64,000 nt of DNA from Bacillota bacterium. GTDB lineage: Bacteria > Bacillota > PH28-bin88. Position 1 is the stretch's first letter; the number at the start of each line of letters is the position of its first letter. The translations under genes were made by a program, and so were the position numbers. Under the pieces are notes generated by a model, which did no database searches, was not told the origin of the DNA, and saw only the letters and a list, made by a program, of their open reading frames with translations. The DNA lies in assembly GCA_040757295.1 (NCBI GenBank), contig JBFLXH010000007.1, forward strand, positions 35,142 through 99,141. Reading direction: 5' to 3'. Positions 10,132-46,382 of this stretch are shown here, in pieces.

Positions 10132-11316
10132 ATGCGTAAAACAGCTGTTTTGGAGGGCTCGGTAGGGGTTGCTGAAGCAGTAAAGGCGTGCCGCCCAAAG
10201 GTAATTTCCGCTTATCCTATCAGCCCTCAGACTCATGTGGTAGAGACTTTGGCTAAAATGGCCGCAGAGGGAGAAATTGATGCCGATTATATTCGAGTTG
10301 AATCAGAATTTTCAGCTGCATCGGTTGTTTATGGCGCTAGCGCTGCCGGTGTCAGGGCATATACCGCTTCTTCTTCCCAAGGTTTGCTGTTGATGACGGA
10401 AGTTATTTATAATATGGCGGGAACTAGGTTGCCTGTCGTTTTGACAGGAATTAACAGAACGGTTTCAGCCCCGATTACAATTCAACCTGACCACCAGGAT
10501 ACAATGGCTTTCCGGGATGCAGGCATCATCCAGTTGTATGTGGAAAGCAATCAGGAGGCATATGCGACCCATATTCAAGCCTTTAAAATTGCCGAAGACC
10601 ATCAAGTGCTTCTGCCGGTAATGGTATGTATGGACGGATGGATTTTGACTCATTGCTATGAGCCGATTGAACTATTAGGACAAGAAGAGGTTGACAGCTT
10701 TTTAGCGCCCTACCGGCCCCTTTACCCCCTTGATCCGCGAAAGCCTGTGACTTATGGTTCATTTGCAGATGAGGAGGTTATGGAATTTCGGTATATGGTT
10801 CATGCGGCAATGGAAAGGGCCAAGGCGAAGATTGTGGATGTGGCGGAGGAGTACCGCCAACGGTTCGGTTATTATTTCGGGGGATTGATTGAAGAGTATT
10901 ACTCCCAAGACGCCGAAATAGTCCTGGTAGCTATGGGTTCTATGGTGGCTACATTGAAAGACGCAGTTGACACATTGAGGAACGAAGGGATAAATATCGG
11001 GCTTTTGAAAATTCGGGCCTATCGCCCTTTTCCTGCCGAAGAGGTGAGACAGGCCTTAGCCAAAGCCAGAATTGTGGCGGTTTTAGATAAAAGCTTGTCT
11101 TGCGGTTATGCCGGGCCTTTGGCCTTGGATCTCAAGGCAGCCATGTATAATGCTGAAGCTCACCCGACCATTTTAAGTTTGATTGCTGGCCTAGGGGGCA
11201 GAGAAGTGGACCTGCAAACAGTGCGGGAAATTGTTAACCGGTGCCGGGCTGCAGCCAAGGCAGTGGACTGCGATTTCTTCCAACTGAGATCAGGACTTGT
11301 TGAATTCCCGGGCTGA
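10132..11316 (+). CDS. 2-oxoacid:ferredoxin oxidoreductase alpha subunit
   Basis: POR/VOR alpha family, 394 aa (AYPISPQT..., GINRTVSAP...). Confidence 0.9.
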   Translation: MRKTAVLEGSVGVAEAVKACRPKVISAYPISPQTHVVETLAKMAAEGEIDADYIRVESEFSAASVVYGASAAGVRAYTASSSQGLLLMTEVIYNMAGTRLPVVLTGINRTVSAPITIQPDHQDTMAFRDAGIIQLYVESNQEAYATHIQAFKIAEDHQVLLPVMVCMDGWILTHCYEPIELLGQEEVDSFLAPYRPLYPLDPRKPVTYGSFADEEVMEFRYMVHAAMERAKAKIVDVAEEYRQRFGYYFGGLIEEYYSQDAEIVLVAMGSMVATLKDAVDTLRNEGINIGLLKIRAYRPFPAEEVRQALAKARIVAVLDKSLSCGYAGPLALDLKAAMYNAEAHPTILSLIAGLGGREVDLQTVREIVNRCRAAAKAVDCDFFQLRSGLVEFPG

Positions 11317-11334
11317 ATTGGGGGAGGAAATAAT

Positions 11335-12225
11335 ATGGAACAACTTTTGGCGCCGGGGCATCGGGCCTGTCCAGGTTGCGGTGTGGCGGTAGCAGTAAGG
11401 CAGATATTGAGCGCAACAGGCCCTAATGTGATTGTTGTATCACCTACAGGCTGCCTGGAGACTTTTACTTCTCCTTATGGTTATTCAGCATGGGAGGTGC
11501 CTTGGATTCATCCCCTTTTTGAAAATGCTGCAGCCGTGGCTTCAGGCGTTGAGGCAGCTCTGAAATACACCGGCCTAAAAGACACACCAGTAGTGGTAAT
11601 GGGCGGTGACGGGGGTACTTTTGATATTGGTTTCGGCGGTCTTTCCGGAATGTTTGAGCGGGGGCATAACGTAACCTATATCTGCTATGACAATGAGGCG
11701 TACATGAATACCGGCATCCAGCGCAGCAGCGCTACCCCTCTAGGGGCTGCCACCACCACCACCCCATCGGGGAAAATATCATTGGGGAAAATGGAGCGGA
11801 AGAAAGATATGCCTGCGATTGCTATTGCCCATGGTCTTGACTATGTGGCCACCGCAGCTATCTGTTATCCCAAAGACCTAATGCACAAGGTAAAAAAGGC
11901 TATTTCCATTGAGGGGCCCAAATATCTTCAGGTGCATACCCCATGCTGCGTTGGCTGGGGTTTTGAACCAGCCCTTACTGTCGAAATGGCACGGTTGGCG
12001 GTGCAAACAGGATTGATGCCTATTTTTGAAGCTGTAAACGGCCAAATATCTGCGGTACGAAAAATTGCTCAGGTCCGGCCTGTTAGGGAATATATCGAAA
12101 AGCAGGCCAGGTTTAAACACCTGTTTAATTCAGGACCAGAGGGTTTGGCAGTCTTAGAACGTATCCAAGAACTGGCCGATAAAAATATTGCTGCTTGGGG
12201 AATGGCGTCAAAGGAGGTAAGCTGA
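11335..12225 (+). CDS. 2-oxoacid:ferredoxin oxidoreductase beta (TPP-binding) subunit
   Basis: ACPGCG Fe-S/TPP region and the GGDGG TPP-binding motif (VVMGGDGGTFDIGF). Confidence 0.9.
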   Translation: MEQLLAPGHRACPGCGVAVAVRQILSATGPNVIVVSPTGCLETFTSPYGYSAWEVPWIHPLFENAAAVASGVEAALKYTGLKDTPVVVMGGDGGTFDIGFGGLSGMFERGHNVTYICYDNEAYMNTGIQRSSATPLGAATTTTPSGKISLGKMERKKDMPAIAIAHGLDYVATAAICYPKDLMHKVKKAISIEGPKYLQVHTPCCVGWGFEPALTVEMARLAVQTGLMPIFEAVNGQISAVRKIAQVRPVREYIEKQARFKHLFNSGPEGLAVLERIQELADKNIAAWGMASKEVS

Positions 12226-13665
12226 ATGAAAACTGCTGCGGAATATTTGGAATCTCTACGTGGGCTGAGACCAAGAGTATATGCCTTTGGGGAGGAAATT
12301 GCTTGTGTAGTAGACCATCCCTTGACAAAGCCCCATGTGGCAGCAGCTGCATTAACATATGAGCTGGCTCATCAACCCGATGCTGAGGACTTGGTAACCG
12401 CCCTTTCCCATCGAAGCGGGCGGGTTATTAACCGTTTTACCCATATCCATCAAAGTACTCAAGACTTAGTAAAAAAAGTAAAAATGCTTAGGATGATTGC
12501 CCAAAAAACCGGTAGCTGTTTTCAGAGATGTGTTGGATTTGACGCGATAAATGCTATATACAGTGTTACCTACGAAATGGACCAGGAACTGGGCACCAGC
12601 TATCACGAGAGGTTTTGCGCTTACCTGGACAGATTGCAGGAAGAAGACCTGATGGTAGCTGGTTCTATGACAGATGCCAAGGGCGACCGCAGTTTAAAGC
12701 CAAGCCAACAGCCAGATCAAGACGTCTATGTCAGGGTGGTGGCAAAAAATGAGAAAGGGATTGTAATTAGAGGAGGGAAAGCTCACCAAACAGGCATTGT
12801 CAACTCTCATGAAATGTTGATCATGCCTACAACTGCTCTAACCGCGGAGGATGCCGACTTTGCCCTGTGCTGTGCGGTCCCGGTTGATGCACCAGGAGTT
12901 ATCCATATTTTTGGCAGGCAAACCAACGACACCCGAAGGCTAGAAGGCGGCAGCATTGACCAGGGCAATGCCCGGTATGCTATCGTTGGCGGCGAGGCTT
13001 TGACGGTCTTGGAGGATGTTTTTGTGCCATGGGAAAAGGTGTTCATGTGCGGCGAGCACCAGTACGCCGGAATGCTGGTTGAGCGTTTTGCCTGTTATCA
13101 CCGGCAAAACTATGGGGGCTGTAAAACGGGGGTTAGTGATATTATTATTGGCGGCGCCTGCGCCTTAGCAGAATATAACGGGGTGGCCAAGGCTTCTCAC
13201 ATCCGGGATAAGATAGCTGAAATGGTTCACCTGGCAGAAACCATGTATTGCGGCTCCATAGCCTGTTCAGCTGAGGGAAGCCCAACCAAGTCAGGGGCTT
13301 ATCTGGTAGAGCCACTATTAGCTAACACGGTGAAACAAAATGTTACCCGGTTTATTTACGAAATTAGCCGTCTAGCCCATGACATTGCGGGTGGATTCCT
13401 TGCTACCCTGCCATCGGAGAAGGATATTGAGCACCAGGAAATTGGACAGTATGTGCTAAAATACTTTGCCGGGACGGCAGGAGTCCCGGTTGAGCACAGG
13501 ATTAGGGTGGCCAGGCTGCTTGAAAACATGACAGGGGGAACCGCCTTGTTAGAGTCCATGCACGGCGCCGGCTCACCCCAAGCACAGCGGGTAATGATCT
13601 TAAGGCAGGCAAACTTGGCCCATAAAAAGAAGCTGGCTGAGCGTTTAGCGGGCGTCTGCTGCTGA
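12226..13665 (+). CDS. abfD: 4-hydroxybutyryl-CoA dehydratase / vinylacetyl-CoA delta-isomerase family (AbfD-like)
   Basis: 479 aa, collinear with AbfD. Hallmark blocks: QKTGSCFQRCVGFDA (cluster Cys pair), HQTGIVNSHE, ESMHGAGSPQAQRVMI. Confidence 0.8.
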   Translation: MKTAAEYLESLRGLRPRVYAFGEEIACVVDHPLTKPHVAAAALTYELAHQPDAEDLVTALSHRSGRVINRFTHIHQSTQDLVKKVKMLRMIAQKTGSCFQRCVGFDAINAIYSVTYEMDQELGTSYHERFCAYLDRLQEEDLMVAGSMTDAKGDRSLKPSQQPDQDVYVRVVAKNEKGIVIRGGKAHQTGIVNSHEMLIMPTTALTAEDADFALCCAVPVDAPGVIHIFGRQTNDTRRLEGGSIDQGNARYAIVGGEALTVLEDVFVPWEKVFMCGEHQYAGMLVERFACYHRQNYGGCKTGVSDIIIGGACALAEYNGVAKASHIRDKIAEMVHLAETMYCGSIACSAEGSPTKSGAYLVEPLLANTVKQNVTRFIYEISRLAHDIAGGFLATLPSEKDIEHQEIGQYVLKYFAGTAGVPVEHRIRVARLLENMTGGTALLESMHGAGSPQAQRVMILRQANLAHKKKLAERLAGVCC

Positions 13666-13666
13666 G

Positions 13667-14011
13667 ATGGTTGCTGAGATGGAGCTTAGCGAGAAGAAGC
13701 CCTTGGTGCTGGTCAAGTTTTGTGGCGGGTGCAATCCGCTAATTGACCGCCAGGCAGTTTTTAATGAATTAAAGGAGCTCCTTTTCAGTACTCACCAGGT
13801 GATTGCTGCCCTTATGCCTGCGGCTGACTGGTTTTTAATTATCAGCGGTTGTAGGGTAAACTGTGCTGGTGTTCCAAAGGAATGGGCAAAGCCGGAGAAA
13901 ACAATCCGAGTTGCGGGAACAGCTGTAAATGGTTGGCTTGTCAATGAGAATGAATTAGCCGATGCCATTGCCCGAATTATTACTGGCTTGCATACTATTA
14001 ATTACGGCTAA
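13667..14011 (+). CDS. small CGGC-motif protein (function unknown)
   Basis: KFCGGCNP motif plus a second Cys pair. Overlaps the abfD stop by 1 nt (operonic). Start may be the ATG at 13676. Confidence 0.5.
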   Translation: MVAEMELSEKKPLVLVKFCGGCNPLIDRQAVFNELKELLFSTHQVIAALMPAADWFLIISGCRVNCAGVPKEWAKPEKTIRVAGTAVNGWLVNENELADAIARIITGLHTINYG

Positions 14012-14070
14012 TTTGCCCCAAAAATCCGTGGTAATGGAGATTGCAATGGTTACCAAGCGGCTGCTTCTTA

Positions 14071-14099
14071 TTGACTTACTTCACTGGCTATGCTATGAT
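14071..14099 (+). promoter_or_regulatory. sigma-A-type promoter for tRNA-Leu(GAG)
   Basis: TTGACT, 17-nt spacer, TATGAT; ends ~16 nt upstream of the tRNA 5' end. Confidence 0.6.
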
Positions 14100-14115
14100 A
14101 TCTCTTGCCAAGAGA

Positions 14116-14200
14116 GCGGAAGTGGCGGAACCGGCAGACGCGTACGTTTGAGGGGCGTATGGGAAATCCCGTGGGGGTTCAAGTCCCCCCTTCCGCACCA
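14116..14200 (+). tRNA. tRNA-Leu (anticodon GAG), type II with long variable arm, encoded CCA
   Basis: Hand-folded. Acceptor GCGGAAG/CTTCCGC; anticodon stem TACGT/GCGTA with loop TTGAGGG; variable arm GGGAAATCCC; T-arm GGGGG-TTCAAGT-CCCCC; 3' ACCA. Confidence 0.75.
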
Positions 14201-14256
14201 ACAAAACAAATTAAGGCGTGCATTAAGTCGATGTGCGCTTTTTGTTTTTGGTTTAC

Positions 14257-14601
14257 TTAGCCAAAAACCCTGTAGGTGATGAAAACGGCGCCTGCGAAAC
14301 CAGCAAAATCGGCAAGCAAACCCACAGGCACGGCATAGGAGAATTTTTTGATGCCAACTGATGCAAAATAGACAGCCAAAATATAAAAGGTGGTGTCGGT
14401 ACTGCCATCCAAGGTGCAGGCTAATCTCCCGATAAAGGAATCAGGCCCGAACCTATCAATAAGTTCTGCAGTCAGACCGAGGGCTGCCGGACCGGAAAGA
14501 GGGCGAACAAGCATGAGGGGAAAGATTTCCCCAGGAATGTTAAAAAGAGATAAGCCCAAGAACCCTTTCCACTGCTGCCCCGGCAGACATTCGCTATTCA
14601 A
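14257..14601 (-). pseudogene. spmB: spore maturation protein B (SpmB) C-terminal two-thirds; N-terminally truncated fragment
   Basis: Aligns to the B. subtilis SpmB C-terminal region (IPGEIFPLMLVRPLSG...TTFYILAVYFASVGIKK). The N-terminal ~60 aa and the expected spmA partner are absent. Confidence 0.6.
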
Positions 14602-14603
14602 TG

Positions 14604-14696
14604 ATTCCTATTATCATGCTGACGGCCAAAGATGATGATATTGACAAAATCTTGGGAATTTAAATGGGGGCAGATGACTATATGACCAAGCCATGA
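14604..14696 (+). pseudogene. remnant of OmpR-family response regulator (end of receiver domain), disrupted by stop
   Basis: Translation [29 protein letters not shown] matches the receiver-domain consensus MLTAKxxxxDxIxGLExGADDYxTKPF, with an in-frame TAA. Confidence 0.55.
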
Positions 14697-14697
14697 A

Positions 14698-14851
14698 GCT
14701 CAAGGATTTGCAGGTCCAACTTGAAGTGCGGGATACTGGCGTTGGAATTCCAGCAGAGGAATTGCCCTTTATTTTCGATCCTTTTTACAGGGTTGACCGA
14801 GCCCGGGCAAGAGCGACCGGCGGTTACGGGCTGGGGCTTGCCAAAAATTAA
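14698..14851 (+). pseudogene. remnant of sensor histidine kinase (C-terminal HATPase_c G-boxes only)
   Basis: Translation LQVQLEVRDTGVGIPAEELPFIFDPFYRVDRARARATGGYGLGLAK covers the G1/G2 boxes. No upstream kinase domains are present. Confidence 0.55.
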
Positions 14852-14879
14852 AACAGGGGCACATGGCCCCTGTGTTTTA

Positions 14880-15749
14880 TTAGTAGGAACGACCAAAGTT
14901 TTGTCCGGCGAAATTGGGGCTGGTGTACTGGCCCCCGAACTGACCGCCAATGTTTTGTCCTCCAAAGGTAGAGAGTCCGCCAAACTGGGCGCCAGCCTGT
15001 TGGGTCAGGCCACTAATCTGCTGCAAGTCCCTGTTTACTTGGTTTGCCATTTGCTGTAGCTGCTGCAGCTGTTGGCTAACTTGACGTTCAGCTTGGGCTA
15101 GCTGCTGGAGCTGTTGAGCCGTGCTGAATTCAGTTTGTTGCAAGCGCTGTAGGGTATTGGCATTGTTTTGCTCTACTTGGGCCATTTGGGAGACCATAGC
15201 CTGTATGCTGTTCAGCTCATCCCTGAAACGCTGGATCTGCTGCTGCAGTTGGAAGGCAGAGGTAATCGGGGCTTGGTATGACTGCTGATAATTAGGGGTA
15301 AACCCTATATTTGTTTGTCCATAGGCTCCGGTTGTAAAGGGAGAGAAACCGCCGAAACCCCCATAAGCGCCTGTGTAACCCAAGGTTGGGCTGATTTGTC
15401 CCGCTGTGTATGCGCTGCTCGCCCACTTATCGCCAACTCCCAAGGTTCTGTAATTGTCGCCGACACCAAGGGTAGTTTGGCTATATGGCTGCTGGGTATA
15501 TGCGCCTGCCCAATTGCTAATAGGCTGGTGTGCGAAGTTTTGACCGTACTGGCTTGCGGCGCTGGCCCATTTGTCCCCGACCCCCAAAGTCCTGGTATTA
15601 TCTCCAACGCCTAGAGTGGTCTGGGCATAGGGTTGGCTAGAAAATCCGCCTGTCGAAAACCCTTGTGACCCGTAGCCGAACGAACCCAACTGAGAACCCT
15701 GCATCCCTGTACCAAGATTTCCTGCTTGATAGCCGAATTGATTGAACAC
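14880..15749 (-). CDS. Gln/Gly/Tyr/Thr-rich low-complexity protein with internal ~45-aa tandem repeat and Q-rich coiled-coil (candidate spore coat/structural protein)
   Basis: 289 aa with GTG start. TTLGVGDNxRTLGVGDKWAS is duplicated. Central QQLQQLAQAERQVSQQLQQLQQ. G/Q/Y-rich termini, no signal peptide. Confidence 0.6.
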   Translation of the reverse strand: MFNQFGYQAGNLGTGMQGSQLGSFGYGSQGFSTGGFSSQPYAQTTLGVGDNTRTLGVGDKWASAASQYGQNFAHQPISNWAGAYTQQPYSQTTLGVGDNYRTLGVGDKWASSAYTAGQISPTLGYTGAYGGFGGFSPFTTGAYGQTNIGFTPNYQQSYQAPITSAFQLQQQIQRFRDELNSIQAMVSQMAQVEQNNANTLQRLQQTEFSTAQQLQQLAQAERQVSQQLQQLQQMANQVNRDLQQISGLTQQAGAQFGGLSTFGGQNIGGQFGGQYTSPNFAGQNFGRSY

Positions 15750-16090
15750 CTAAAAACCGCACCTCCTGGATTGTTATAGTTTTTTCCGCTGTTAGTATGA
15801 CACCGGATTTATTACTTATGCTGGGAATTATTAGAATGCGAGTTGGAATCATATGGGTGTGTTACTATGGCCTTTTCTTTACTCCCTAATCCTGTTAAAC
15901 AGATCAGGTAAAATCCAGATAGGAAATAAATTGCCGTATTTTCCGAACATCCTTTGGAGGAAATCAAAAGTGCTTATAGAATAGATTAAATTAAAACTCC
16001 CAGGAGGTTGTAGTTGTACTTGCAATTTTAGTCACAAAAAGGGTAAGATATTAATAAGTCTTTTTAGGAAAGCAGAAGGAGGCTAAAATA

Positions 16091-16294
16091 ATGTTTGGCT
16101 TAATTCCCAGCATTGGTCCAACTGAACTCATATTGATATTGGCCTTGGCTTTAATTATCTTTGGTCCCGGTAAATTGCCCGATGTAGGGAAATCCTTGGG
16201 CAAGACAATTAGAGAATTTCGCAGCGCAACTAAAGATGAAGCCCCCTCTGCCGCTCAGCTAAAGAATGAAGGGGAGAAGCAGGCAGATTCGTAA
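16091..16294 (+). CDS. tatA: twin-arginine translocase TatA/E-family subunit
   Basis: N-terminal TM plus amphipathic helix (IILALALIIFGPGKLPDVGKSLGKTIREF); 67 aa. Confidence 0.85.
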   Translation: MFGLIPSIGPTELILILALALIIFGPGKLPDVGKSLGKTIREFRSATKDEAPSAAQLKNEGEKQADS

Positions 16295-16323
16295 ATTATT
16301 AGTGGGACAAGAGAGGTGCCAAC

Positions 16324-16518
16324 ATGTTTAATATTGGGCCGTGGGAACTAATCCTGATATTAATTGTTGCGTTGGTTGTTGTAGGTCCGAAAAAGCTGCC
16401 GGAGATGGGCAGGGCTGTTGGGAATGGATTAAAGGAATTCCGAAAAGCTACTTCTGATATCAGAAACCAACTAGATGTCACCAAAGCCGAGCCTCCTGCG
16501 GAAGAAAAGAAAACTTAA
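16324..16518 (+). CDS. tatA: second TatA/B-family subunit
   Basis: ILILIVALVVVGPKKLPEMGRAVGNGLKEFRK; 64 aa. Confidence 0.85.
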   Translation: MFNIGPWELILILIVALVVVGPKKLPEMGRAVGNGLKEFRKATSDIRNQLDVTKAEPPAEEKKT

Positions 16519-16853
16519 GGGAATATCAAATATTTTAATATTCGGTCTCCGAGCTAATACCGCCTAACGGTTTTTCCTATGGGGTTTAAGCCTGAGCTCT
16601 TAGCTCACGGGGTACAATTACCGGAAACGGGTGTGCCTCCATTATTGGGAAGGAGATGCATTAGGTCGTTTATTATTTCGGCCCTGCTAATTCGTTCCTT
16701 AGCAGGGCCATTATTTATAAGCTGGGATGCAAAAATAAGGTTGTTTATCCTTTTATTAGGTTAGCTGCTTATTAGTACTGGGAGCGCCTTACTGCCTCAG
16801 CAAGTATATCCAAGTTATTAACAAAGCATCGTAGAAGCTTTGGGGGTGTTTTC

Positions 16854-17609
16854 GTGGAAGAAAAGTCCATGACTATTGTGGAACACTTAGAAGAATTGAG
16901 GAAGGTTGTCGTGGTTTCAATTATTGCTGTTTTGATTTCAACCATGGCAATTTTTTTCCTATTTCGCGATCTCCTATTTATGGCGGCCATCAAGCCATTA
17001 GCTGATTATGGCATACAGGTTGTTTTCATTGGGCCGACAGAAGCTTTGTTTTCCAAACTAAAAATAAGTATCTTCGCTGGCCTTTTTGTCTCTTTGCCGG
17101 TTATTTTATGGAAGATATGGAGCTTTGTGGTCCCGGCTCTGCATACCAATGAGCGGCGGTATGTTTACTTGTTAGTTCCTACATCCTTGCTGCTATTTCT
17201 GCTGGGAGTTTCTTTTGCTTACTTTACAGTTCTACAAGTCGCCACCAGATTCTTACTCGTAATTGCTGCTGAAGGATTAGAACCCATGATTACTGTAAGT
17301 AAATACATTTCTTTCTTAGTCTCCTTTTTACTCCCATTCGGGGCCGTTTTTGAGCTGCCATTAATAGTCTTTTTTCTGACCCATATTGGTATAATAAACC
17401 ACAGTTTTTTGGCAAGGAATCGTAGATATGCAATACTAATTACCTTTGTTTTAGCCGCTTTGTTAACACCCCCGGATGTAGTGTCCCAAACCCTCTTGGC
17501 TGGGCCAATGGTTATTTTATATGAAATCAGTATTTGGGTTTCCCGTGTGGCAAAACCTAAACCTAAGTTGGAAAATTCCGTTGCAAAAGAAACTTCCTCA
17601 AGGGATTAA
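16854..17609 (+). CDS. tatC: twin-arginine translocase subunit TatC
   Basis: Six-TM TatC family (EHLEELRKVVVVSIIAVLIS..., LTPPDVVSQ). ORF track start is GTG; the ATG at 16869 is also possible. Confidence 0.9.
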   Translation: MEEKSMTIVEHLEELRKVVVVSIIAVLISTMAIFFLFRDLLFMAAIKPLADYGIQVVFIGPTEALFSKLKISIFAGLFVSLPVILWKIWSFVVPALHTNERRYVYLLVPTSLLLFLLGVSFAYFTVLQVATRFLLVIAAEGLEPMITVSKYISFLVSFLLPFGAVFELPLIVFFLTHIGIINHSFLARNRRYAILITFVLAALLTPPDVVSQTLLAGPMVILYEISIWVSRVAKPKPKLENSVAKETSSRD

Positions 17610-17617
17610 AAATAATT

Positions 17618-18271
17618 GTGGAATTATTTAATTACCGCAAGGGAGGAAAGGCAATGCGCGGGGTAAGCGCTATAGTCCTGTCCGGCGGTAGAAGTACCCG
17701 CATGAAAGCAAACAAGGCCTTTATTGAGATCGGAAGTCAACCGCTGCTGGAGAGGATTGTTAATGACTTAAAACAGGAATTTGCTGAAGTGATTCTTTCA
17801 ACAAATGAACCTCATTTGTACCATGGGATTAATGTTAAGCTAGTACAAGACATTATCCCTTATCGCGGCCCTATAAATGGAATCCATGCAGGTCTTTCCG
17901 CCACGGCATATTCCCATGCTTTCGTTGTTGCTTGTGACATGCCCTTTATGGATGTAAAGCTGGCGGCTTTCCTGGCGGATTTGGCAGTGGGATACGATGT
18001 TGTTGTCCCTGTGGTGAATGGGCATTACCAACCCCTTTATGCAGTTTATAGCAAAGCCTGCCTTCCGTATATTGAAGAGAATCTTAAGCAGAACATTTAT
18101 CGAATTGCGGCTTTTTATGACCATGTTAGAGTACGCCGGGTCCAGGCGTCCGAAATTGAGATGCTGGTTGATAAGCACAAGGTATTTTTTAATGTAAACA
18201 CGCCAGAAGACCTTGCTAAGGCTCACGAAATGTCTAAATCAGGAGGTCGAAAAACTGGTGAAAAAAGTTAA
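17618..18271 (+). CDS. mobA: molybdenum cofactor guanylyltransferase
   Basis: LSGGRSTRM nucleotide-binding motif (start likely ATG 17654); MobA-like fold; next to mobB, moeA and moaA. Confidence 0.85.
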   Translation: MELFNYRKGGKAMRGVSAIVLSGGRSTRMKANKAFIEIGSQPLLERIVNDLKQEFAEVILSTNEPHLYHGINVKLVQDIIPYRGPINGIHAGLSATAYSHAFVVACDMPFMDVKLAAFLADLAVGYDVVVPVVNGHYQPLYAVYSKACLPYIEENLKQNIYRIAAFYDHVRVRRVQASEIEMLVDKHKVFFNVNTPEDLAKAHEMSKSGGRKTGEKS

Positions 18272-19283
18272 GGTTGAAGAGGCCATTGGGCAGGTATTAT
18301 GCCATGATATAACCAAAATAGTCCCTGGCGAATTTAAAGGAGCTGCTTTTAAGAAGGGGCACATTGTCCGGGAAGAAGATATTCCCGAGTTATTAAGCTT
18401 AGGCAAGGAGCATTTATTTATTTGGGAGATCAAGGAAGGCTATTTGCATGAAGACCAGGCAGCAGAGCGGATCGCAAGAGCTAGTGGAGGCGAAGGTATA
18501 AGTTTTTCTAGACCGGCAGAAGGCAAAATTAATTTCCGTGCAACCTATCGAGGCCTGTTAAAAGTCAATGTCCAGACCTTATTTCAGATTAACTCTATTT
18601 CCCAGGTGGTTTTGGCTACAAAGCATAACAACCGGGTAGTAGAAGAAGGAGAAATTGTGGCTGGTACTAGGGTAATTCCTATTGTAATTGACGACCAGTC
18701 TATTGAACAGGTAGAACAAATTTGCCATGACGCTGGGCCAGTAGTAGAGGTAAAACCTTTTTTTTCTAAGAAGGTTGGCATAATTACTACAGGAAATGAG
18801 GTTTACCGGGGCCGAATCCAGGATAGGTTTGGGCCTGTCGTTATTAATAAATTAGAACCCTTTGGCGCTACCCTTATCGGGCAAGAAATAGCGCCTGATG
18901 ATCCGGAAACAATTGCGAATAGCGTGAAGAAGTATTTAGCTAAAGGTGCGGAAATGATTTTAGTTACCGGGGGCATGTCTGTTGATCCGGATGATGTAAC
19001 CCCTTTAGGCATAAAACTTGCTGGCGCTCAAATTGTTGCATATGGCGCTCCCGTGTTGCCGGGTTCGATGTTTATGATGGCTTATTTGGGTGAGGTTCCT
19101 GTAATGGGCTTGCCCGGTTGTGTTATGTATGCTCGTACAACTATTTTTGACCTTGTTTTACCAAGGGTTTTAGCCGGTGAGTTTATTTGCCAAAATGATT
19201 TAATCGGTTTAGGGCACGGGGGGTTGTGCCAGGAATGCGCCCAGTGCCAATATCCTACCTGCGCTTTTGGAAAAGGATTTTAG
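18258..19283 (+). CDS. molybdopterin-binding domain protein (MoeA/MogA-like MoCF-biosynthesis domain, N-terminal extension)
   Basis: GTG start after RBS AGGAGG. Central MoCF_biosynth-like region (GIITTGNEVYRG...VTGGMSVDPDD) and a C-terminal Cys-rich tail (CQECAQCQYPTC). Confidence 0.65.
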   Translation: MKKVKVEEAIGQVLCHDITKIVPGEFKGAAFKKGHIVREEDIPELLSLGKEHLFIWEIKEGYLHEDQAAERIARASGGEGISFSRPAEGKINFRATYRGLLKVNVQTLFQINSISQVVLATKHNNRVVEEGEIVAGTRVIPIVIDDQSIEQVEQICHDAGPVVEVKPFFSKKVGIITTGNEVYRGRIQDRFGPVVINKLEPFGATLIGQEIAPDDPETIANSVKKYLAKGAEMILVTGGMSVDPDDVTPLGIKLAGAQIVAYGAPVLPGSMFMMAYLGEVPVMGLPGCVMYARTTIFDLVLPRVLAGEFICQNDLIGLGHGGLCQECAQCQYPTCAFGKGF

Positions 19284-20535
19284 GGGGAATGTAAAATTGT
19301 TTTTCAATATTCCTCTTGAGCAGGCACAAGAACTGCTCTTGTCCTGTGTAAGGCCTCCAGTTGTGGAGGAGGTAGCTTTATTAGAAGCTTTGGGACGGGT
19401 TTTAGCCAGAGATGTTTATTCAGTAGAAGATATTCCCCCCTTTGATCGTTCTCCTTTGGATGGATATGCGGTGAGGGCAAAAGATACTGAAGAAGCGTCT
19501 GCCACCGTTCCTGCACGGCTAAAAGTAATTGCTGAATTACCTGCAGGGTTGGTCTGGCCGGTACCCTTATCTCAAGGGACAGCAATAAAGATAATGACGG
19601 GCGCTCCTATTCCGCCAGGGGCAAATGCAATCATAAAGATAGAAGATGTTCAGCCTCTTGATAATGAAATTCTGATTAGGACGCCGCTGAAGCCTGACAG
19701 CAATATCGTTAAAGCAGGCGAAGACGTAAAAGCAGGAGAATTGGTTTTAAAACGGGGCAGCTTTTTGAATGCCGGTGCGATCGGCATGCTGGCAGCGGTC
19801 AACCGGGAGACGCTCCCGGTTTTCGAAAAACCAAAAATTGCAGTAATTTGTACTGGAGAAGAGCTGGTAGAACTAGGGGCTGTCAGGGGACCAGGAAAGA
19901 TTAGGAATAGCAATTTGTATGCTATAAGCGCTGCAGTTATAGAAGCAGGTGGCCAGCCAATATTAATGGGCACAGTGCCTGATCGGCTGGAAGAGATAAG
20001 TAGGGCCATGGAACAAGGCTTGGAACAGGCTGATTTGATAGTTACTACCGGTGGAGCCTCTGTGGGCGAGTATGACCTGGTTGGTGAGGCTTACAGCAAA
20101 ATAAATTCAGAGATTCTTTTTAGAAGGGTGGCTGTGAAGCCAGGGACCCCCACTCTAGCAGCAAAGAGAAGCTCTCAATTATTAGTTGGTTTATCGGGAA
20201 ACCCTGCGGCTGCTTTGATAGGCTTTGAGTTCCTTGTCCGGCCCCTGATTAAGGTTATGAGCGGCTGGTCTAGTTGTTTCAGGCCAAGAGTGGAAGCTGT
20301 CATGGCCGAGGATTTTAACAAGGCAGGTGGACCCCGCCGGTTTTTGCGGGCTATGGTTAAGAAGCAAGAGGGAAGCTACCGTGTTTTCTTAGCGGGAAAA
20401 CAAAGTCCTGGTATCTTGAAATCCATCCTCCATTGTAATGCTCTGGTAGATGTGCCTGAGGGCAGCGGTCCGTTAAAAGCCGGAGAGAAGGTTGAGGCCA
20501 TAATTCTTGCCGAAAGCGAGGTATTGACCCTGTGA
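19267..20535 (+). CDS. moeA: molybdopterin molybdotransferase
   Basis: MoeA N/linker/MoCF/C domain order; FDRSPLDGYAV, GGASVGEYD. Confidence 0.85.
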   Translation: MEKDFRGNVKLFFNIPLEQAQELLLSCVRPPVVEEVALLEALGRVLARDVYSVEDIPPFDRSPLDGYAVRAKDTEEASATVPARLKVIAELPAGLVWPVPLSQGTAIKIMTGAPIPPGANAIIKIEDVQPLDNEILIRTPLKPDSNIVKAGEDVKAGELVLKRGSFLNAGAIGMLAAVNRETLPVFEKPKIAVICTGEELVELGAVRGPGKIRNSNLYAISAAVIEAGGQPILMGTVPDRLEEISRAMEQGLEQADLIVTTGGASVGEYDLVGEAYSKINSEILFRRVAVKPGTPTLAAKRSSQLLVGLSGNPAAALIGFEFLVRPLIKVMSGWSSCFRPRVEAVMAEDFNKAGGPRRFLRAMVKKQEGSYRVFLAGKQSPGILKSILHCNALVDVPEGSGPLKAGEKVEAIILAESEVLTL

Positions 20536-21026
20536 TACCGGTTATTTCCGTTGTAGGGAAATCTGATATGGGCAAAACTACACTGCTTGAGAAGCTCATT
20601 CCTGAGCTAAAAAACCGGGGTTATCGTGTAGCCGTAATAAAACATGATGCCCATAGCTTTGATATTGACCATCCTGGAAAAGACACTTGGCGTCATGCCA
20701 GGGCAGGAGCCGATGTAGTAGTAATCTCTTCTCCTGCTAAAGTAGCTATGATCTGTAAAGTGGAAGAAGAAAAGAAATTGGATGAGATTGCTGCAATGAT
20801 CCAAGATGTTGATTTAATTATAACAGAGGGTTACAAGAGGGGAAACAAGCCGAAAATTGAAGTTTTTAGGAAAGCCAGGGGCGAAAAAGAATTGTTATGC
20901 CAACCAGAAGAACTAGTCGCCATTGCCACCGATATGCATTTTGACATTGGCGTTCCTGTTTTTTCCCTGGATGATACGGTTGGCTTGGCGCTTTTGATCG
21001 AGAATAAGTTTTTGCGAAAGGTGTGA
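20532..21026 (+). CDS. mobB: molybdopterin-guanine dinucleotide biosynthesis adapter protein
   Basis: P-loop GKSDMGKTTLLEKL; ~160 aa. Confidence 0.85.
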   Translation: MIPVISVVGKSDMGKTTLLEKLIPELKNRGYRVAVIKHDAHSFDIDHPGKDTWRHARAGADVVVISSPAKVAMICKVEEEKKLDEIAAMIQDVDLIITEGYKRGNKPKIEVFRKARGEKELLCQPEELVAIATDMHFDIGVPVFSLDDTVGLALLIENKFLRKV

Positions 21027-29714: not shown

Positions 29715-30545
29715 ATGCAGGGTGTATGGTTTTCAGAAGCTCAGTCAGCTAATTTAGGTTTTTCCTGCAGAGTAAAATCAGTTTTGCATAAAGAAAAAAC
29801 CGGTTTTCAGGATCTATTAGTGTTAGATACTGAAAGCTTTGGCAGAATGCTGGTTTTAGATGGAGCTATCCAAACAACAATTATTGATGAGTTTGTTTAT
29901 CATGAAATGATCAGTATGGTTGCGGTTAATTCCCACCCTAATCCGAGTAGGGTGTTAGTAATTGGCGGAGGCGATGGGGGAGCTATTAGAGAGATTATTA
30001 AGCATCCTAAAGTTAAAAAAGCTACCTTGGTAGAAATAGACGAGCGAGTTGTGGAATGTGCAAAGAAATATCTGCCAGAGATTTCGGTGGCCCTTGACAA
30101 TGAAAAGGTTGAAGTGCTAATCGAAGATGGTATCAAGCACATTGACGAAAGGTCGGACTATTACGATGTAGTCATTGTTGATTCAACAGATCCGGTTGGC
30201 CCGGCAGTAGGTCTTTTTAACAAAGATTTTTATGGTTCTATTTTTAAAGCCCTCAAAGAGGACGGAATATTTGTTGCTCAAACCGAATCACCATGGTTTA
30301 ATAAAGACTTAATTCGGCGTGTTTATGCTGACATTAAGGACATTTTTCCAATTGCCAAACTTTACACCGCAAATGTGCCAACATATCCAAGCGGTATGTG
30401 GAGCTTTACCATTGGAAGCAAGGTCTATGACCCAGAGAAGGTTGACTTAGATAAGTTGCCTGATACAAGAACCAAATACTATTCGCCAGAGGTCCATCTT
30501 GCAGCCTTTAAGCTGCCTCCCTTTGTTAAGGCTTTGTTGGGCTAA
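29715..30545 (+). CDS. speE: polyamine aminopropyltransferase (spermidine synthase)
   Basis: VLVIGGGDGGAIREI SAM-binding motif; SpeE length and N-terminal tetramerisation region. Confidence 0.9.
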   Translation: MQGVWFSEAQSANLGFSCRVKSVLHKEKTGFQDLLVLDTESFGRMLVLDGAIQTTIIDEFVYHEMISMVAVNSHPNPSRVLVIGGGDGGAIREIIKHPKVKKATLVEIDERVVECAKKYLPEISVALDNEKVEVLIEDGIKHIDERSDYYDVVIVDSTDPVGPAVGLFNKDFYGSIFKALKEDGIFVAQTESPWFNKDLIRRVYADIKDIFPIAKLYTANVPTYPSGMWSFTIGSKVYDPEKVDLDKLPDTRTKYYSPEVHLAAFKLPPFVKALLG

Positions 30546-30558
30546 ATAAGGAGGAACA

Positions 30559-31416
30559 ATGGAGCAATTTTTAGAAAAGCCTGGAGGTTTTCTAGGGTCC
30601 AACGCTGATTATTTAGACGCTGCAATAGTCTTATTGGGCGCTCCAATGGACTTTACCGTAAGTTATCGGCCCGGAACCCGTATGGGGCCTCAGCAAGTCC
30701 GTGCTGTCTCTGTTGGACTGGAAGAGTACAGTATTTATCTTGACAGGGACTTATCAGAAGTGCCTTTTGCAGACTTGGGCGATGTTGCACTACCCTTTGG
30801 GAACGTTACCCAAAGCCTGGAGCTGATAAAACAAGTGGTGGAACGGGTTTTAGAAGACGGGAAAAAACCCTTTGTGATTGGTGGGGAACATTTAATATCC
30901 TACCCTGTTATCCAAGCAGTATATGAAAGATATGCAGATCTAATGGTAGTGCACTTTGATGCCCATGCTGATTTGCGGAAAGATTACATTGGAGAAGCAA
31001 ATTCCCATGCGACAGTAATGCGAAAAGCAACTGAATTGTTGGGACAGAAACGCATTGTGCAGGTAGGTATTAGGTCAGGTATCAAGGAAGAATTTGAATA
31101 TGCCCATGACTATACCTATCTTTTTAGGGATAGAGTTGAGGAAGCAATGCCACGGGTTAAAGAAATTGTTGGCGACCGGCCTTTATATATTTCTTTGGAT
31201 ATTGATGTAGTTGACCCTGCCTTTGCTCCGGGAACCGGAACTCCTGAACCCGGAGGCTGTACTGCAAGAGAGATTATCGGTGCAATTCATTCTTTGAAAG
31301 AGTGCCGGACTGTCGGTTTTGACCTGGTAGAGATTTCTCCGGTCTATGATCCTTCTGAGCGGACAGCCTTGCTAGGCGCAAAACTGTTAAGAGAGGCTAT
31401 TCTTTGTTTTGGTTGA
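30559..31416 (+). CDS. speB: agmatinase (ureohydrolase family)
   Basis: Arginase-fold Mn ligands (GGEHLIS, DAHAD, SLDIDVVDPAFAPGTGTPEPGG); adjacent to speE. Confidence 0.9.
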   Translation: MEQFLEKPGGFLGSNADYLDAAIVLLGAPMDFTVSYRPGTRMGPQQVRAVSVGLEEYSIYLDRDLSEVPFADLGDVALPFGNVTQSLELIKQVVERVLEDGKKPFVIGGEHLISYPVIQAVYERYADLMVVHFDAHADLRKDYIGEANSHATVMRKATELLGQKRIVQVGIRSGIKEEFEYAHDYTYLFRDRVEEAMPRVKEIVGDRPLYISLDIDVVDPAFAPGTGTPEPGGCTAREIIGAIHSLKECRTVGFDLVEISPVYDPSERTALLGAKLLREAILCFG

Positions 31417-31539: not shown

Positions 31540-31615
31540 GGGCGATTAGCTCAGCTGGGAGAGCACCTGCCTTACAAGCAGGGGGTCGGCAGTTCAAACC
31601 TGTCATCGCCCACCA
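31540..31615 (+). tRNA. tRNA-Val (TAC)
   Basis: Hand-folded cloverleaf; anticodon loop CTTACAA; CCA encoded. Confidence 0.85.
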
Positions 31616-31624
31616 AAAAAGTAC

Positions 31625-31701
31625 GGAGCTGTAGTGTAGCGGTCTAACATGCCGGCCTGTCACGCCGGAGATCGCGGGTTCGATTCCCGTCAGCTCCGCC
31701 A
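31625..31701 (+). tRNA. tRNA-Asp (GTC)
   Basis: Acceptor GGAGCTG/CAGCTCC; anticodon loop CTGTCAC; CCA encoded. Confidence 0.85.
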
Positions 31702-31705
31702 TTCT

Positions 31706-31781
<76 letters not shown>

Positions 31782-31784
31782 GTT

Positions 31785-31859
31785 GCGGAAGTAGCTCAGT
31801 GGTAGAGCATCGCCTTGCCAAGGCGAGGGTCGCGGGTTCGAATCCCGTCTTCCGCTCCA
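31785..31859 (+). tRNA. tRNA-Gly (GCC)
   Basis: Acceptor GCGGAAG/CTTCCGC; anticodon loop TTGCCAA; CCA encoded. Confidence 0.85.
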
Positions 31860-31941
31860 TTAAGTTTATACCGTGCAAGTAACGTAAATGATATTATGAA
31901 GCAACACTCGGCCTATGGCCTTTTTTGAGGCATTTTGTGTT

Positions 31942-32017
31942 GGTGCGGTGGCGAAGAGGCTAACGCCGCGGACTGCAAATCCGCTATTCGTGGGTTCAAA
32001 TCCCACCCGCACCTCCA
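31942..32017 (+). tRNA. tRNA-Cys (GCA)
   Basis: Acceptor GGTGCGG/CCGCACC; anticodon loop CTGCAAA; CCA encoded. Confidence 0.85.
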
Positions 32018-32031
32018 AAAAAGAATGAAAA

Positions 32032-32057
32032 GGACTGCCCAAAAGGCGGTCCGTTTT
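32032..32057 (+). terminator. terminator after tRNA-Cys
   Basis: GGACTGCC-CAAAA-GGCGGTCC hairpin followed by GTTTT. Confidence 0.55.
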
Positions 32058-32081
32058 ACTGCAAAAATATAGAGTGATTGG

Positions 32082-32110
32082 TTGCTAATTACAAAGCAGC
32101 GTGATATAAT
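32082..32110 (+). promoter_or_regulatory. sigma-A promoter (extended -10) for tRNA-Leu(TAA)
   Basis: TTGCTA, 17-nt spacer, TGaTATAAT. Confidence 0.6.
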
Positions 32111-32153
32111 TATTTTTGCCTTCGTTAATTACTATAATTACTATTTAAAATGT

Positions 32154-32241
32154 GCCGGAGTGGCGGAATAGGCAGACGCAAGGGACTTAAAATCCCTCGG
32201 GCCACAAGCCCGTACCGGTTCGAGTCCGGTTTCCGGCACCA
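32154..32241 (+). tRNA. tRNA-Leu (TAA), type II
   Basis: Acceptor GCCGGAG/TTCCGGC (G-U); anticodon loop CTTAAAA; long variable arm; CCA encoded. Confidence 0.8.
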
Positions 32242-45911: not shown

Positions 45912-46382
45912 GTGACCCACCATATGGAGCATGCGGGACAAGGAGTCCAAATGCATCAGATGCAGACGGCCGGTGGTGCCAATCTGCTCACTGATAAAAA
46001 CATTTTAAGTGATTGCCTGGCTTCCCAAAAGTTTTTGGCAGCATGTTATAATCATGCTGTAACAGAAAGTGCTAATGAAAGTTTGCGGCGGGATTTCATG
46101 GGTATTTACCAGGAAGAGCAAAACAACCTAAAAGCCGTCTTTGATGTTATGACAAGGCAAGGCTGGTACAACCTGAATTATGCTAACCCTCAGGATATTG
46201 CTCAGGTTCAACATCAATTCCAGCAAGAGATGGCCCAAGGAGGACAGCCTCAAAACTTTACCGCCCAGCACCAATACCAAGCCAATGTACCGGCCCAACA
46301 GTTTAACCAATATGGGGTGCAAGCCGGACAATTTACTCCCCATCATCACCCCGGTTTTCAACAGCCTTACCGGAATTGGTAA
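45912..46382 (+). CDS. Coat F domain protein (spore coat protein F-like) with Q-rich tail
   Basis: NILSDCLASQKFLAACYNHAVTESANESLRRDF Coat_F core; own RBS AAGGAGG; 156 aa. Confidence 0.65.
   Translation: MTHHMEHAGQGVQMHQMQTAGGANLLTDKNILSDCLASQKFLAACYNHAVTESANESLRRDFMGIYQEEQNNLKAVFDVMTRQGWYNLNYANPQDIAQVQHQFQQEMAQGGQPQNFTAQHQYQANVPAQQFNQYGVQAGQFTPHHHPGFQQPYRNW

Follow-up and report, generated by a model that had tools for sequence, protein, structure and literature searches.

A decayed locus at positions 14,116 to 15,749 of a 64,000-nucleotide (nt) stretch of Bacillota DNA (contig JBFLXH010000007.1; the whole stretch, which is the part of the source genome covered by the analysis, is hereafter called the window) contains an intact minus-strand gene for a protein of 289 amino acids (aa), which homology assigns to the YxeD family (PF27172), next to remnants of the sporulation genes spmA and spmB and of a two-component system. 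Comparison with related loci indicates that the 289-aa gene is an ancestral resident of this site and that its former neighbors spmA and spmB were lost through a recent deletion, and the gene itself is preceded by a match to the promoter type recognized by sigma-G in the forespore. The joint explanation that we favor, and hold to be moderately probable, combines this locus history with a long-form YxeD protein that would be made in the forespore, reside in the spore core, self-associate, and have a network-forming or storage function. The finding is a modest one, namely a documented case of recent deletional decay together with a long-form member of a catalogued family whose function is uncharacterised. 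An earlier note on this DNA had described the stretch as an old insertion/deletion scar at a tRNA integration hotspot; all four features that it listed beside the tRNA gene (a truncated spmB, remnants of a response regulator and of a histidine kinase, and the 289-aa gene) are indeed present.

The source organism is an uncultured Bacillota metagenome-assembled genome (MAG) related to Calderihabitans, the glutamine synthetase encoded in the window being 85% identical to that of Clostridiales bacterium PH28_bin88 and 82% identical to that of Calderihabitans maritimus; relatives are assigned to Peptococcaceae, Syntrophomonadaceae, and Desulforudis. The contigs used for comparison were L014 (JGI Ga0208734_100006, 219 kb), which has 86% nt identity to window positions 10336-14552, L005, which is 98.6% identical to L014, and the more distant L002, with ~76% nt identity to the window. 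Identity to the 289-aa protein is 81-82% for P0001 and the L014 orthologue, 78% for P0002 and the L002 orthologue, and 41% for P0004 (L009).

An intact and conserved yxeD-family gene

The 289-aa gene occupies positions 14880-15749 of the minus strand, as first described, with a GTG start codon and a stop codon at 14880-14882 (open reading frame (ORF) list, homology, and substitution rates). It is preceded by a ribosome-binding site (AGGAGGTG; 15760-15767, minus strand) that lies 10 nt upstream of the GTG and is invariant in L002 and L005, and it is followed by a GC-rich 8-bp hairpin with T-runs on both strands (14853-14873; pattern scan), homologous to L002 10844-10886, which is likely its terminator. 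Nei-Gojobori estimates made pairwise against orthologues give a ratio of nonsynonymous to synonymous substitution rates (dN/dS) of 0.07-0.10 for the whole gene, 0.03-0.04 for the helix, and 0.08-0.15 for the N-terminal low-complexity region, at a dS of ~1. The gene is divergent from tatA-tatA-tatC and is resident at this position in four independent relatives; in the locus of P0004 (Firmicutes bacterium UBA2598), it is divergent from tatA-tatA-tatC-mobA-moeA. Comparison with these loci establishes the gene as real, intact, ancestral to the site, and under strong purifying selection. It had been regarded as a novel structural gene left behind by the scar, and it turns out to be a resident gene of a catalogued family beside the tat genes. 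The encoded protein has no signal peptide and no transmembrane segment (maximum Kyte-Doolittle 19-residue mean of 0.31), contains no Cys and only two Lys (K60 and K108), has a pI of 6.6, and consists of 18% Gln, 15% Gly, and 5% Tyr.

Homology places the 289-aa protein in the YxeD family as a long-form member. The precomputed PF27172 'YxeD' annotation is carried by P0001-P0003, P0006, P0007, P0012, and P0019, and an exhaustive phmmer search against 1.84 billion representative proteins recovered 28 clusters at E ≤1e-3, nearly all of which match only aa ~164-280. E values ranged from 1e-13 to 1e-4 against 27 further clusters (2.6e-10 for P0006 and 2.5e-8 for P0007), and domain-only phmmer gave 1e-10 to 1e-20. 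The protein had previously been said to match no family that could be named; its homologues carry PF27172, and it belongs to a conserved, catalogued family, an outcome that the earlier note had itself named as one that would lower the novelty. A profile search of a word-indexed protein database returned only four already-known proteins (Q-rich words probably index poorly), and a scan of 185,579 species genomes with a four-sequence alignment picked up three distant loci only, without any close relative. Named sources of the family are all Bacillota (Desulforudis, Peptococcaceae BRH_c4b, Syntrophomonadaceae, UBA2598, and a Bacillota MAG), and most members are proteins of 94-280 aa in which the domain is N-terminal and is followed by a G/Q/Y/S/T-rich tail. 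No second family member was found in the window. In other genomes, a second type of YxeD locus (L003:10001-11020 and L008:7941-8585) places the gene between a polyamine set (PvlArgDC, spermidine synthase, and agmatinase), a YflT-like gene, and lgt/ftsK; in the window, the genes for these last two enzymes (29715-31416) have no YxeD-family gene beside them.

The YxeD domain itself (aa 162-252; 14994-15266, minus strand) is predicted to form one Q-rich helix, 91 residues long and with 13 heptads in unbroken succession, as judged from AlphaFold2 and from an alignment of 29 domains (A1). The AlphaFold2 model, which was run on the monomer with an eight-sequence alignment, has a predicted local distance difference test (pLDDT) score of ~85-93 in the center of this helix (means of 10-residue blocks, 65-93) and below 50 in aa 1-161 and 250-289. 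The heptad register is continuous (a = 165 + 7n and d = 168 + 7n), with the invariant Glu residues at a-positions 193, 207, and 221 and Asn at d-position 196. The oligomeric state and the register of a coiled coil are usually set by polar residues in its core, which are also able to bind ions. In the alignment of 29 domains, all sequences have E193, E207, and L214, and all but one have N196. There are two length forms of the domain, exactly 14 residues or two heptads apart (A1 columns 62-75; window aa 217-230), of which the window protein has the longer; the xExxxxQQLQQLxQ pattern of the adjoining blocks recurs in the inserted one, so the domain looks built from 14-residue repeats. The combination expected of a YxeD member, a single long alpha-helix with heptads and at least one low-complexity flank, is predicted for the window protein. 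Scans of the 289-aa protein against Pfam and NCBIfam gave only sub-threshold matches to generic coiled coils (EzrA, the RNase Y N-terminus, and SMC), and a profile search of the PDB returned only generic or designed coiled coils at E ≥0.06.

On either side of the helix lie arms of low complexity: a G/T/Q/S/Y/F-rich N-terminal region (aa 1-161; 15267-15749, minus strand), predicted to be disordered from its composition and a pLDDT below 50, and a G/Q/F-rich C-terminal tail (aa 253-289; 14883-14993, minus strand; composition and pLDDT), in which orthologues differ by a 12-aa indel. The arms carry 21 [G/S/A/Q]-[Y/F]-[G/S/T/Q] motifs. All charged residues in aa 1-161 are confined to two copies of a 20-aa unit, the first of which (TTLGVGDNTRTLGVGDKWAS; aa 44-63; 15561-15620, minus strand) holds D50, R53, D59, and K60, and the second of which (TTLGVGDNYRTLGVGDKWAS; aa 92-111; 15417-15476, minus strand) is identical to it at 19 of 20 residues and 43 of 60 nt. 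Both units are kept in L014 and L005, and unit 2 is kept in L002. Considering that the 17 nt differences between the units are almost all synonymous, the duplication is old, with its peptide sequence preserved by selection, and its age would also explain why tandem- and direct-repeat finders detected no DNA-level repeat at this place. Thus, the duplication noticed earlier is present, but it is neither perfect nor recent. The N-terminal extension is specific to the group of close orthologues, as the exhaustive phmmer search recovers it only in P0002 and, weakly, in P0004. The latter (L009:8001-8963) has a duplicated N-terminal unit of its own, (I/V)P(N/Y)FGGI(T/S)...GY(T/A)GA, which is unrelated to TTLGVGDNxRTLGVGDKWAS, so that the two lineages have each evolved a repeat of their own in this region. 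An RTX-like Ca-binding nonapeptide was considered for the 9-residue sub-repeats (TLGVGDNxR and TLGVGDKWA) and rejected, because they do not fit GGxGxDxUx and there is no Pfam HemolysinCabind match.

The protein thus resembles B. subtilis YxeD and other PF27172 members in its homologous Q-rich helical domain of ~80-95 residues, in the invariant Glu/Asn/Leu pattern, and in a long form with two extra heptads; it also shares with B. subtilis YxeD the absence of an export signal, and a link to the spore or forespore may be common to both, as suggested by the promoter match here and by the proteome and an expression profile there. It differs from other members in that the window protein and its close orthologues add a 161-residue N-terminal low-complexity extension with a duplicated charged 20-aa unit that is found nowhere else.

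Promoter type and a possible role in the spore core

The sigma-G consensus, which we take from the B. subtilis literature to be GHATR-N17/18-CATNHTA, is matched upstream of the gene by GCATA-N17-CATACTA (15793-15821, minus strand; consensus scan), with 43 nt between the end of the -10 element and the start codon. With a 17-nt spacer, this is the sole match on both strands of the 64 kb (0.69 expected), and with an 18-nt spacer there is none. For a match to fall by chance within the correct 150 nt, and on the correct strand, the probability is ~1e-3, without correction for the four sigma patterns that were tried. Exact matches are also located 37-43 nt from the start codon in L002, L014, and L009, where both hexamer regions are retained although the spacers have diverged. 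The earlier note proposed checking for a sigma-K or sigma-E promoter, but neither exact consensus occurs in the 250 nt upstream of the gene in the window, L002, L014, or L009 (consensus scan), and the sigma-G type was found instead. Genes for small acid-soluble spore proteins (SASPs), as a positive control for the sigma-G consensus, were found neither in the window (tblastn with alpha/beta-type SASPs) nor in the comparison loci. In B. subtilis, the function of yxeD is not known (PMC4624776); YxeD has been quantified in purified spores (PMC7352945), and the expression profile of yxeD is very similar to those of sspD and the SigF-dependent yhfW (PMC7317962). From the promoter match we infer, with moderate confidence, that the 289-aa gene is transcribed by sigma-G in the forespore; given forespore transcription and the lack of an export signal, the protein would hence be located in the spore core.

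In the explanation that we favor, the forespore sigma-G promoter would drive transcription of the gene, and the protein would stay in the core. The 13-heptad Q-rich helix would self-associate into a long coiled coil, whose conserved buried Glu and Asn layers would set register and oligomeric state, and the uncharged aromatic/glycine-rich disordered arms, with their conserved charged 'TLGVGD(N/K)' islands, would make multivalent weak contacts. The protein could then form a network in the dehydrating core, or serve as a store there, and would not be a cross-linked coat protein. The sigma-G-type promoter, the purifying selection even on the 'disordered' arms, and the invariant core Glu residues together suggest this hypothesis of a forespore-made structural or storage protein of the core. 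A bolder version, which we consider speculative and improbable in its full extent, would extend it to the whole YxeD family as a forespore-made core scaffold: a Q-rich coiled coil of ~13 nm would tether aromatic/glycine 'sticker' arms that gel the dehydrating cytoplasm, the Glu residues buried every 14 residues could bind Ca2+ in the Ca-dipicolinate core, and the family would contribute to a glass-like core or be the clostridial counterpart of the gamma-type SASP amino-acid store.

Several points weigh against a core-resident, network-forming YxeD protein. The PF27172 membership of the window protein derives from the precomputed matches of its orthologues and from direct homology, not from a profile score of its own; the self-association, the role of the buried Glu residues, and the network formation are read from sequence with low confidence, and expression and localization are predictions. 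The promoter call is a consensus match obtained after trying four sigma patterns, and in the wider family L003 and L011 have one mismatch to the sigma-G consensus, and L006, L008, and L012 have no match. The presence of only two Lys in a Q-rich protein is compatible with transglutaminase-type cross-linking. Finally, as the genome has just lost spmAB, the sporulation programme that uses the yxeD-like protein may itself be decaying.

It is fairly unlikely that the protein has no sporulation-specific role and is a general cytoplasmic coiled-coil/low-complexity protein (for stress, desiccation, or the cytoskeleton) with a fortuitous promoter match. Such a role would agree with the weak and generic profile matches mentioned above (EzrA, RNase Y N-terminus, and SMC), with the YflT-like stress-protein gene near the family members in L003 and L008, and with the lack of a sigma-G consensus in some family members. 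However, a chance placement of the sole match has a probability of ~1e-3 and would have to recur at three other orthologous loci with diverged spacers, the named sources all belong to Bacillota lineages known for endospore formers, and B. subtilis YxeD is among the proteins quantified in purified spores (PMC7352945).

We give somewhat less credence still to the idea that the protein is produced in the mother cell for the coat or exosporium and is insolubilised by Tyr-Tyr or Gln-Lys cross-links, as GerQ, CotC/CotU, and CotG are, which was the suggestion of the earlier note and which we regard as unlikely. It would account for the composition (18% Gln, 15% Gly, and 5% Tyr) and for the placement of the only two Lys of a Gln-rich protein in its conserved duplicated motif, and B. 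subtilis YxeD has been listed among the proteins that rise with coat proteins in spores overexpressing kinA (PMC7352945). However, the upstream promoter is of the sigma-G type, which is kept in four orthologues, and an exact sigma-E/sigma-K consensus is absent from the 250 nt upstream; the second Lys is replaced by Arg, which transglutaminase cannot cross-link, in the L002 orthologue; the protein has no Cys and no homology to any Pfam or NCBIfam coat family; and the expression of B. subtilis yxeD follows that of sspD and yhfW, which are forespore genes (PMC7317962). The likeness to GerQ, CotC/CotU, and CotG is thus one of Gln/Tyr/Gly-biased composition and few conserved Lys, whereas these are mother-cell proteins under sigma-E/sigma-K without homology to the 289-aa protein, whose promoter is forespore-like.

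Another known protein for comparison is the gamma-type SASP SspE of Bacillales. SspE is Gln/Gly-rich, repeated, disordered, expressed in the forespore under sigma-G, and located in the core cytoplasm. The 289-aa protein shares with it the Gln/Gly richness, the internal repeats, and the predicted disorder, would likewise be expressed in the forespore under sigma-G and reside in the core, and might plausibly be an analogue as an amino-acid store; it differs in having no sequence homology to SspE and in its long structured coiled coil, which SspE lacks. A GPR-type cleavage motif (E-[FIY]-[AG]-[ST]-E) is absent from the 289-aa protein by direct reading, the nearest sequence being TEFSTA, so that neither this motif nor the homology to SspE that would mark a gamma-type SASP was found. 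The uncharged G/S/Q/Y/F arms flanking a Q-rich coiled coil also recall the FUS-like or prion-like low-complexity domains that are joined to Q-rich coiled coils in eukaryotic condensate formers; this likeness is one of composition only and involves no homology.

Ancestral gene order and recent deletions at the site

In L014, the yxeD-like gene (302 aa) is followed by ykuD (260 aa; YkuD and Big_5), spmA (197 aa; Gate), and spmB (178 aa; Gate), and then by tRNA-Leu(GAG) on the opposite strand. The order after the yxeD-like gene is identical in L005, and in L002 the yxeD-like gene is followed by spmA, spmB, and a defence island. Past the tRNA, L014 and the window have matching genes for a 112-aa protein and an HpaB-like protein. 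None of L014, L005, and L002 has a two-component system at this site. The ancestral arrangement is thereby for the most part established as tatC-tatA-tatA divergent from yxeD-like, ykuD, spmA, and spmB, with tRNA-Leu(GAG) next. By this comparison, spmAB, ykuD, and the tRNA are ancestral neighbors, and the lineage-specific part is confined to ~250 nt of regulator and kinase debris. The earlier note had asked what the site originally contained, and the answer, intact spmAB and no two-component system in L014 and L002, is the one that it had itself taken to contradict its interpretation.

Both spmA and spmB have been reported in all spore-formers (PMC3533761) and are reported to act in the dehydration of the spore core (PMC8745062). 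The locus of the relatives resembles the B. subtilis dacB-spmA-spmB operon (cortex modification and core dehydration) in pairing a gene for a peptidoglycan-modifying enzyme with spmA-spmB, and in having SpmA and SpmB as two Gate-domain proteins (197 and 178 aa in L014). It differs in that the enzyme is an L,D-transpeptidase (YkuD + Big_5) and not the D,D-carboxypeptidase DacB, and in that the set is destroyed in the window.

What is left of spmB in the window are codons 82-179 and the stop codon (14257-14553, minus strand; tblastn and blastn). Positions 14260-14553 are 86% identical to residues 82-179 of the 179-aa SpmB of L002 (E 7.5e-52, tblastn), and blastn identity of the remnant to L002 and L014 is 82-86%. 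What is left of spmA is a piece of ~13 codons (SpmA aa 31-44, reading SAGAAVERVLGLI; 41 nt at 14549-14589, minus strand; blastn), which is out of frame with the spmB piece and is 90-95% identical to L002 11212-11252, L005 2001-2040, and L014 7950-7989. An N-terminally truncated spmB on the minus strand had been described as standing without spmA; the truncation and the strand are correct, whereas spmA is not wholly absent. The junction of the two pieces marks a 702-bp deletion relative to L014 (7990-8691), which removed SpmA from ~aa 45 to its end and aa 1-81 of SpmB. A 114-aa ORF that spans the junction (14257-14601, minus strand) is a mechanical chimera and not a gene, because the TTG start and the opening ~16 codons are spmA DNA read in an incorrect frame; the chimera has no Pfam or NCBIfam match and no Gate match. 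Two adjacent intact membrane proteins of the Gate-domain family PF07670 (~196 and 178 aa), which define an SpmA/SpmB pair, are found in L014 and L002 and not in the window, and no second spmA-spmB copy is present in the 64 kb. On the side of the yxeD-like gene, L014 6834-7949 (the 3' end of the yxeD-like gene, the terminator, ykuD, and the first 89 nt of spmA) is replaced in the window by 14592-14916 with the two-component remnants, and ykuD is absent from the window at this site.

The age of the deletion can be judged from the spmB remnant, which has no stop, no frameshift, and no disabling point mutation in its 98 codons. Its dN/dS against intact orthologues is 0.10-0.15, and the value between intact orthologues is 0.08. 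The intact frame over 98 codons and this low ratio indicate that spmAB were deleted recently, and the scar is therefore not an old one as had been assumed.

Between the spmA piece and the yxeD-like gene lie two overlapping plus-strand ORFs, both of which are confirmed by Pfam and NCBIfam as the remnants of a response regulator and a histidine kinase noticed earlier. The OmpR/WalR-type regulator piece (14601-14696; Pfam Response_reg, E 1.8e-5) covers only receiver positions 71-100, and its best NCBIfam matches are YycF (YycF/WalR; 4.4e-13) and OmpR (1.2e-11). It is absent from L002, L014, and L005, and it is interrupted by an in-frame TAA at 14661-14663; a complete receiver with the phospho-acceptor Asp and a winged-helix output domain, as in a response regulator, was not found. 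The kinase piece (14693-14851; Pfam HATPase_c, E 4.6e-11) covers HATPase_c positions 35-78 of 111, including the F box in addition to the G1 and G2 boxes already reported, with best NCBIfam matches to PnpS and WalK; HisKA is lacking, so that the DHp domain with its His and the full set of N, G1, F, and G2 boxes of a histidine kinase are not present. Kinase homology stops near 14842, and the alignment to L002 resumes at window position 14843. No other OmpR-type system was found in the window.

The course of events that best explains this arrangement, and that is for the most part established, begins with a two-component system becoming placed between the yxeD-like gene and spmA. Several deletions followed, which took out ykuD, the 5' end of spmA, the 702-bp block at the spmA/spmB junction, and the two-component system except for ~250 nt. 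The remnants are non-functional, and the locus is a case of ordinary gene decay beside one catalogued protein. The label of a decayed locus thus fits insofar as pseudogene fragments lie beside one intact gene, but the deletion is recent and the 289-aa gene is not a product of the scar.

The recent loss of ykuD and spmAB raises the question of whether sporulation is being lost in this lineage, in which case the yxeD-like gene would survive solely for want of a disrupting mutation so far and would have no function here. We consider this distinctly improbable, although spmAB are reported in all spore-formers (PMC3533761) and a pairwise dN/dS at dS ~1 is blind to a recent relaxation of selection, because the yxeD-like ORF, its ribosome-binding site, promoter, and terminator are all intact, an intact Coat_F gene is located elsewhere in the window, and a second spmAB copy is possible in the rest of the genome, of which 64 kb were covered. 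If there is no second spmAB copy, this uncultured lineage would provide a naturally occurring example of spore maturation that is altered or in decay.

The tRNA-Leu gene (anticodon GAG; 14116-14200, plus strand) was identified by ARAGORN and by Rfam (RF00005, 48.9 bits), and nothing else was found in the Rfam search of the region. It directly adjoins intact spmB in L014. No direct repeat (≥12 nt) of its 3' half or end, and hence no att repeat, occurs in the 64 kb, and the ORF list shows no integrase-like ORF at 12-18.5 kb. GC content across the locus is unremarkable and reveals no compositional anomaly, and the cumulative GC skew climbs steadily over 12-18 kb. The framing of this tRNA as an integration hotspot accordingly loses its support, the tRNA being an ancestral neighbor of spmB without a 3'-end repeat or a compositional anomaly beside it. 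That the whole stretch is a scar left by a mobile element which inserted at tRNA-Leu and brought the two-component system and possibly the 289-aa gene, as its position next to a tRNA gene and the variable neighborhood in L002 (a defence island past spmB instead of the tRNA) might suggest, is very improbable and already largely refuted, since this tRNA directly adjoins spmB in L014, where the locus is intact, the debris lies on the side of spmB distal to the tRNA, repeat, integrase-like ORF, and GC anomaly are missing within the scopes just given, and the 289-aa gene is syntenic beside tatA in four relatives.

Neighboring genes and other features of the window

A terminator-like hairpin with a T-run lies 3' of the tRNA (14213-14241, plus strand; pattern scan, a consensus match only). 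On the other side of the tRNA, a conserved ORF of 112-114 aa (window 13667-14011, plus strand; L014 9233-9571) follows the HpaB-like (4-hydroxybutyryl-CoA dehydratase-type) gene; it contains the Cys motifs FCGGCNP and GCR(V/I)NC and has no Pfam or NCBIfam match. In L002, the place of the tRNA and the HpaB-like gene beyond spmB is taken by the defence island (12412-20843), which encodes a protein kinase, AAA_15, a DEAD helicase, a TIR-HamA protein, and the R subunit of a type I restriction enzyme; gene content on this flank thus varies within the group. Independent assemblies end either within the tRNA-Leu gene (L001, Logan SRR32167787_7225, whose end corresponds to window position 14135) or 60-125 nt past the yxeD-like gene (L009 and L010), which hints at strain-level variation or repeats around this junction in the sampled communities.

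Farther along the window, the Coat_F-family (PF07875) gene encodes 156 aa (45912-46382, plus strand), is intact, and is located just upstream of the glutamine synthetase gene; by its family assignment, it is evidence of spore-coat genes in this organism. Six clustered tRNA genes (Val, Asp, Phe, Gly, Cys, and Leu-TAA; 31540-32241, plus strand) directly follow the agmatinase gene. The window as a whole has a marked strand bias, with 49 of its 55 ORFs of at least 150 aa on the plus strand and the yxeD-like gene among the six on the minus strand.

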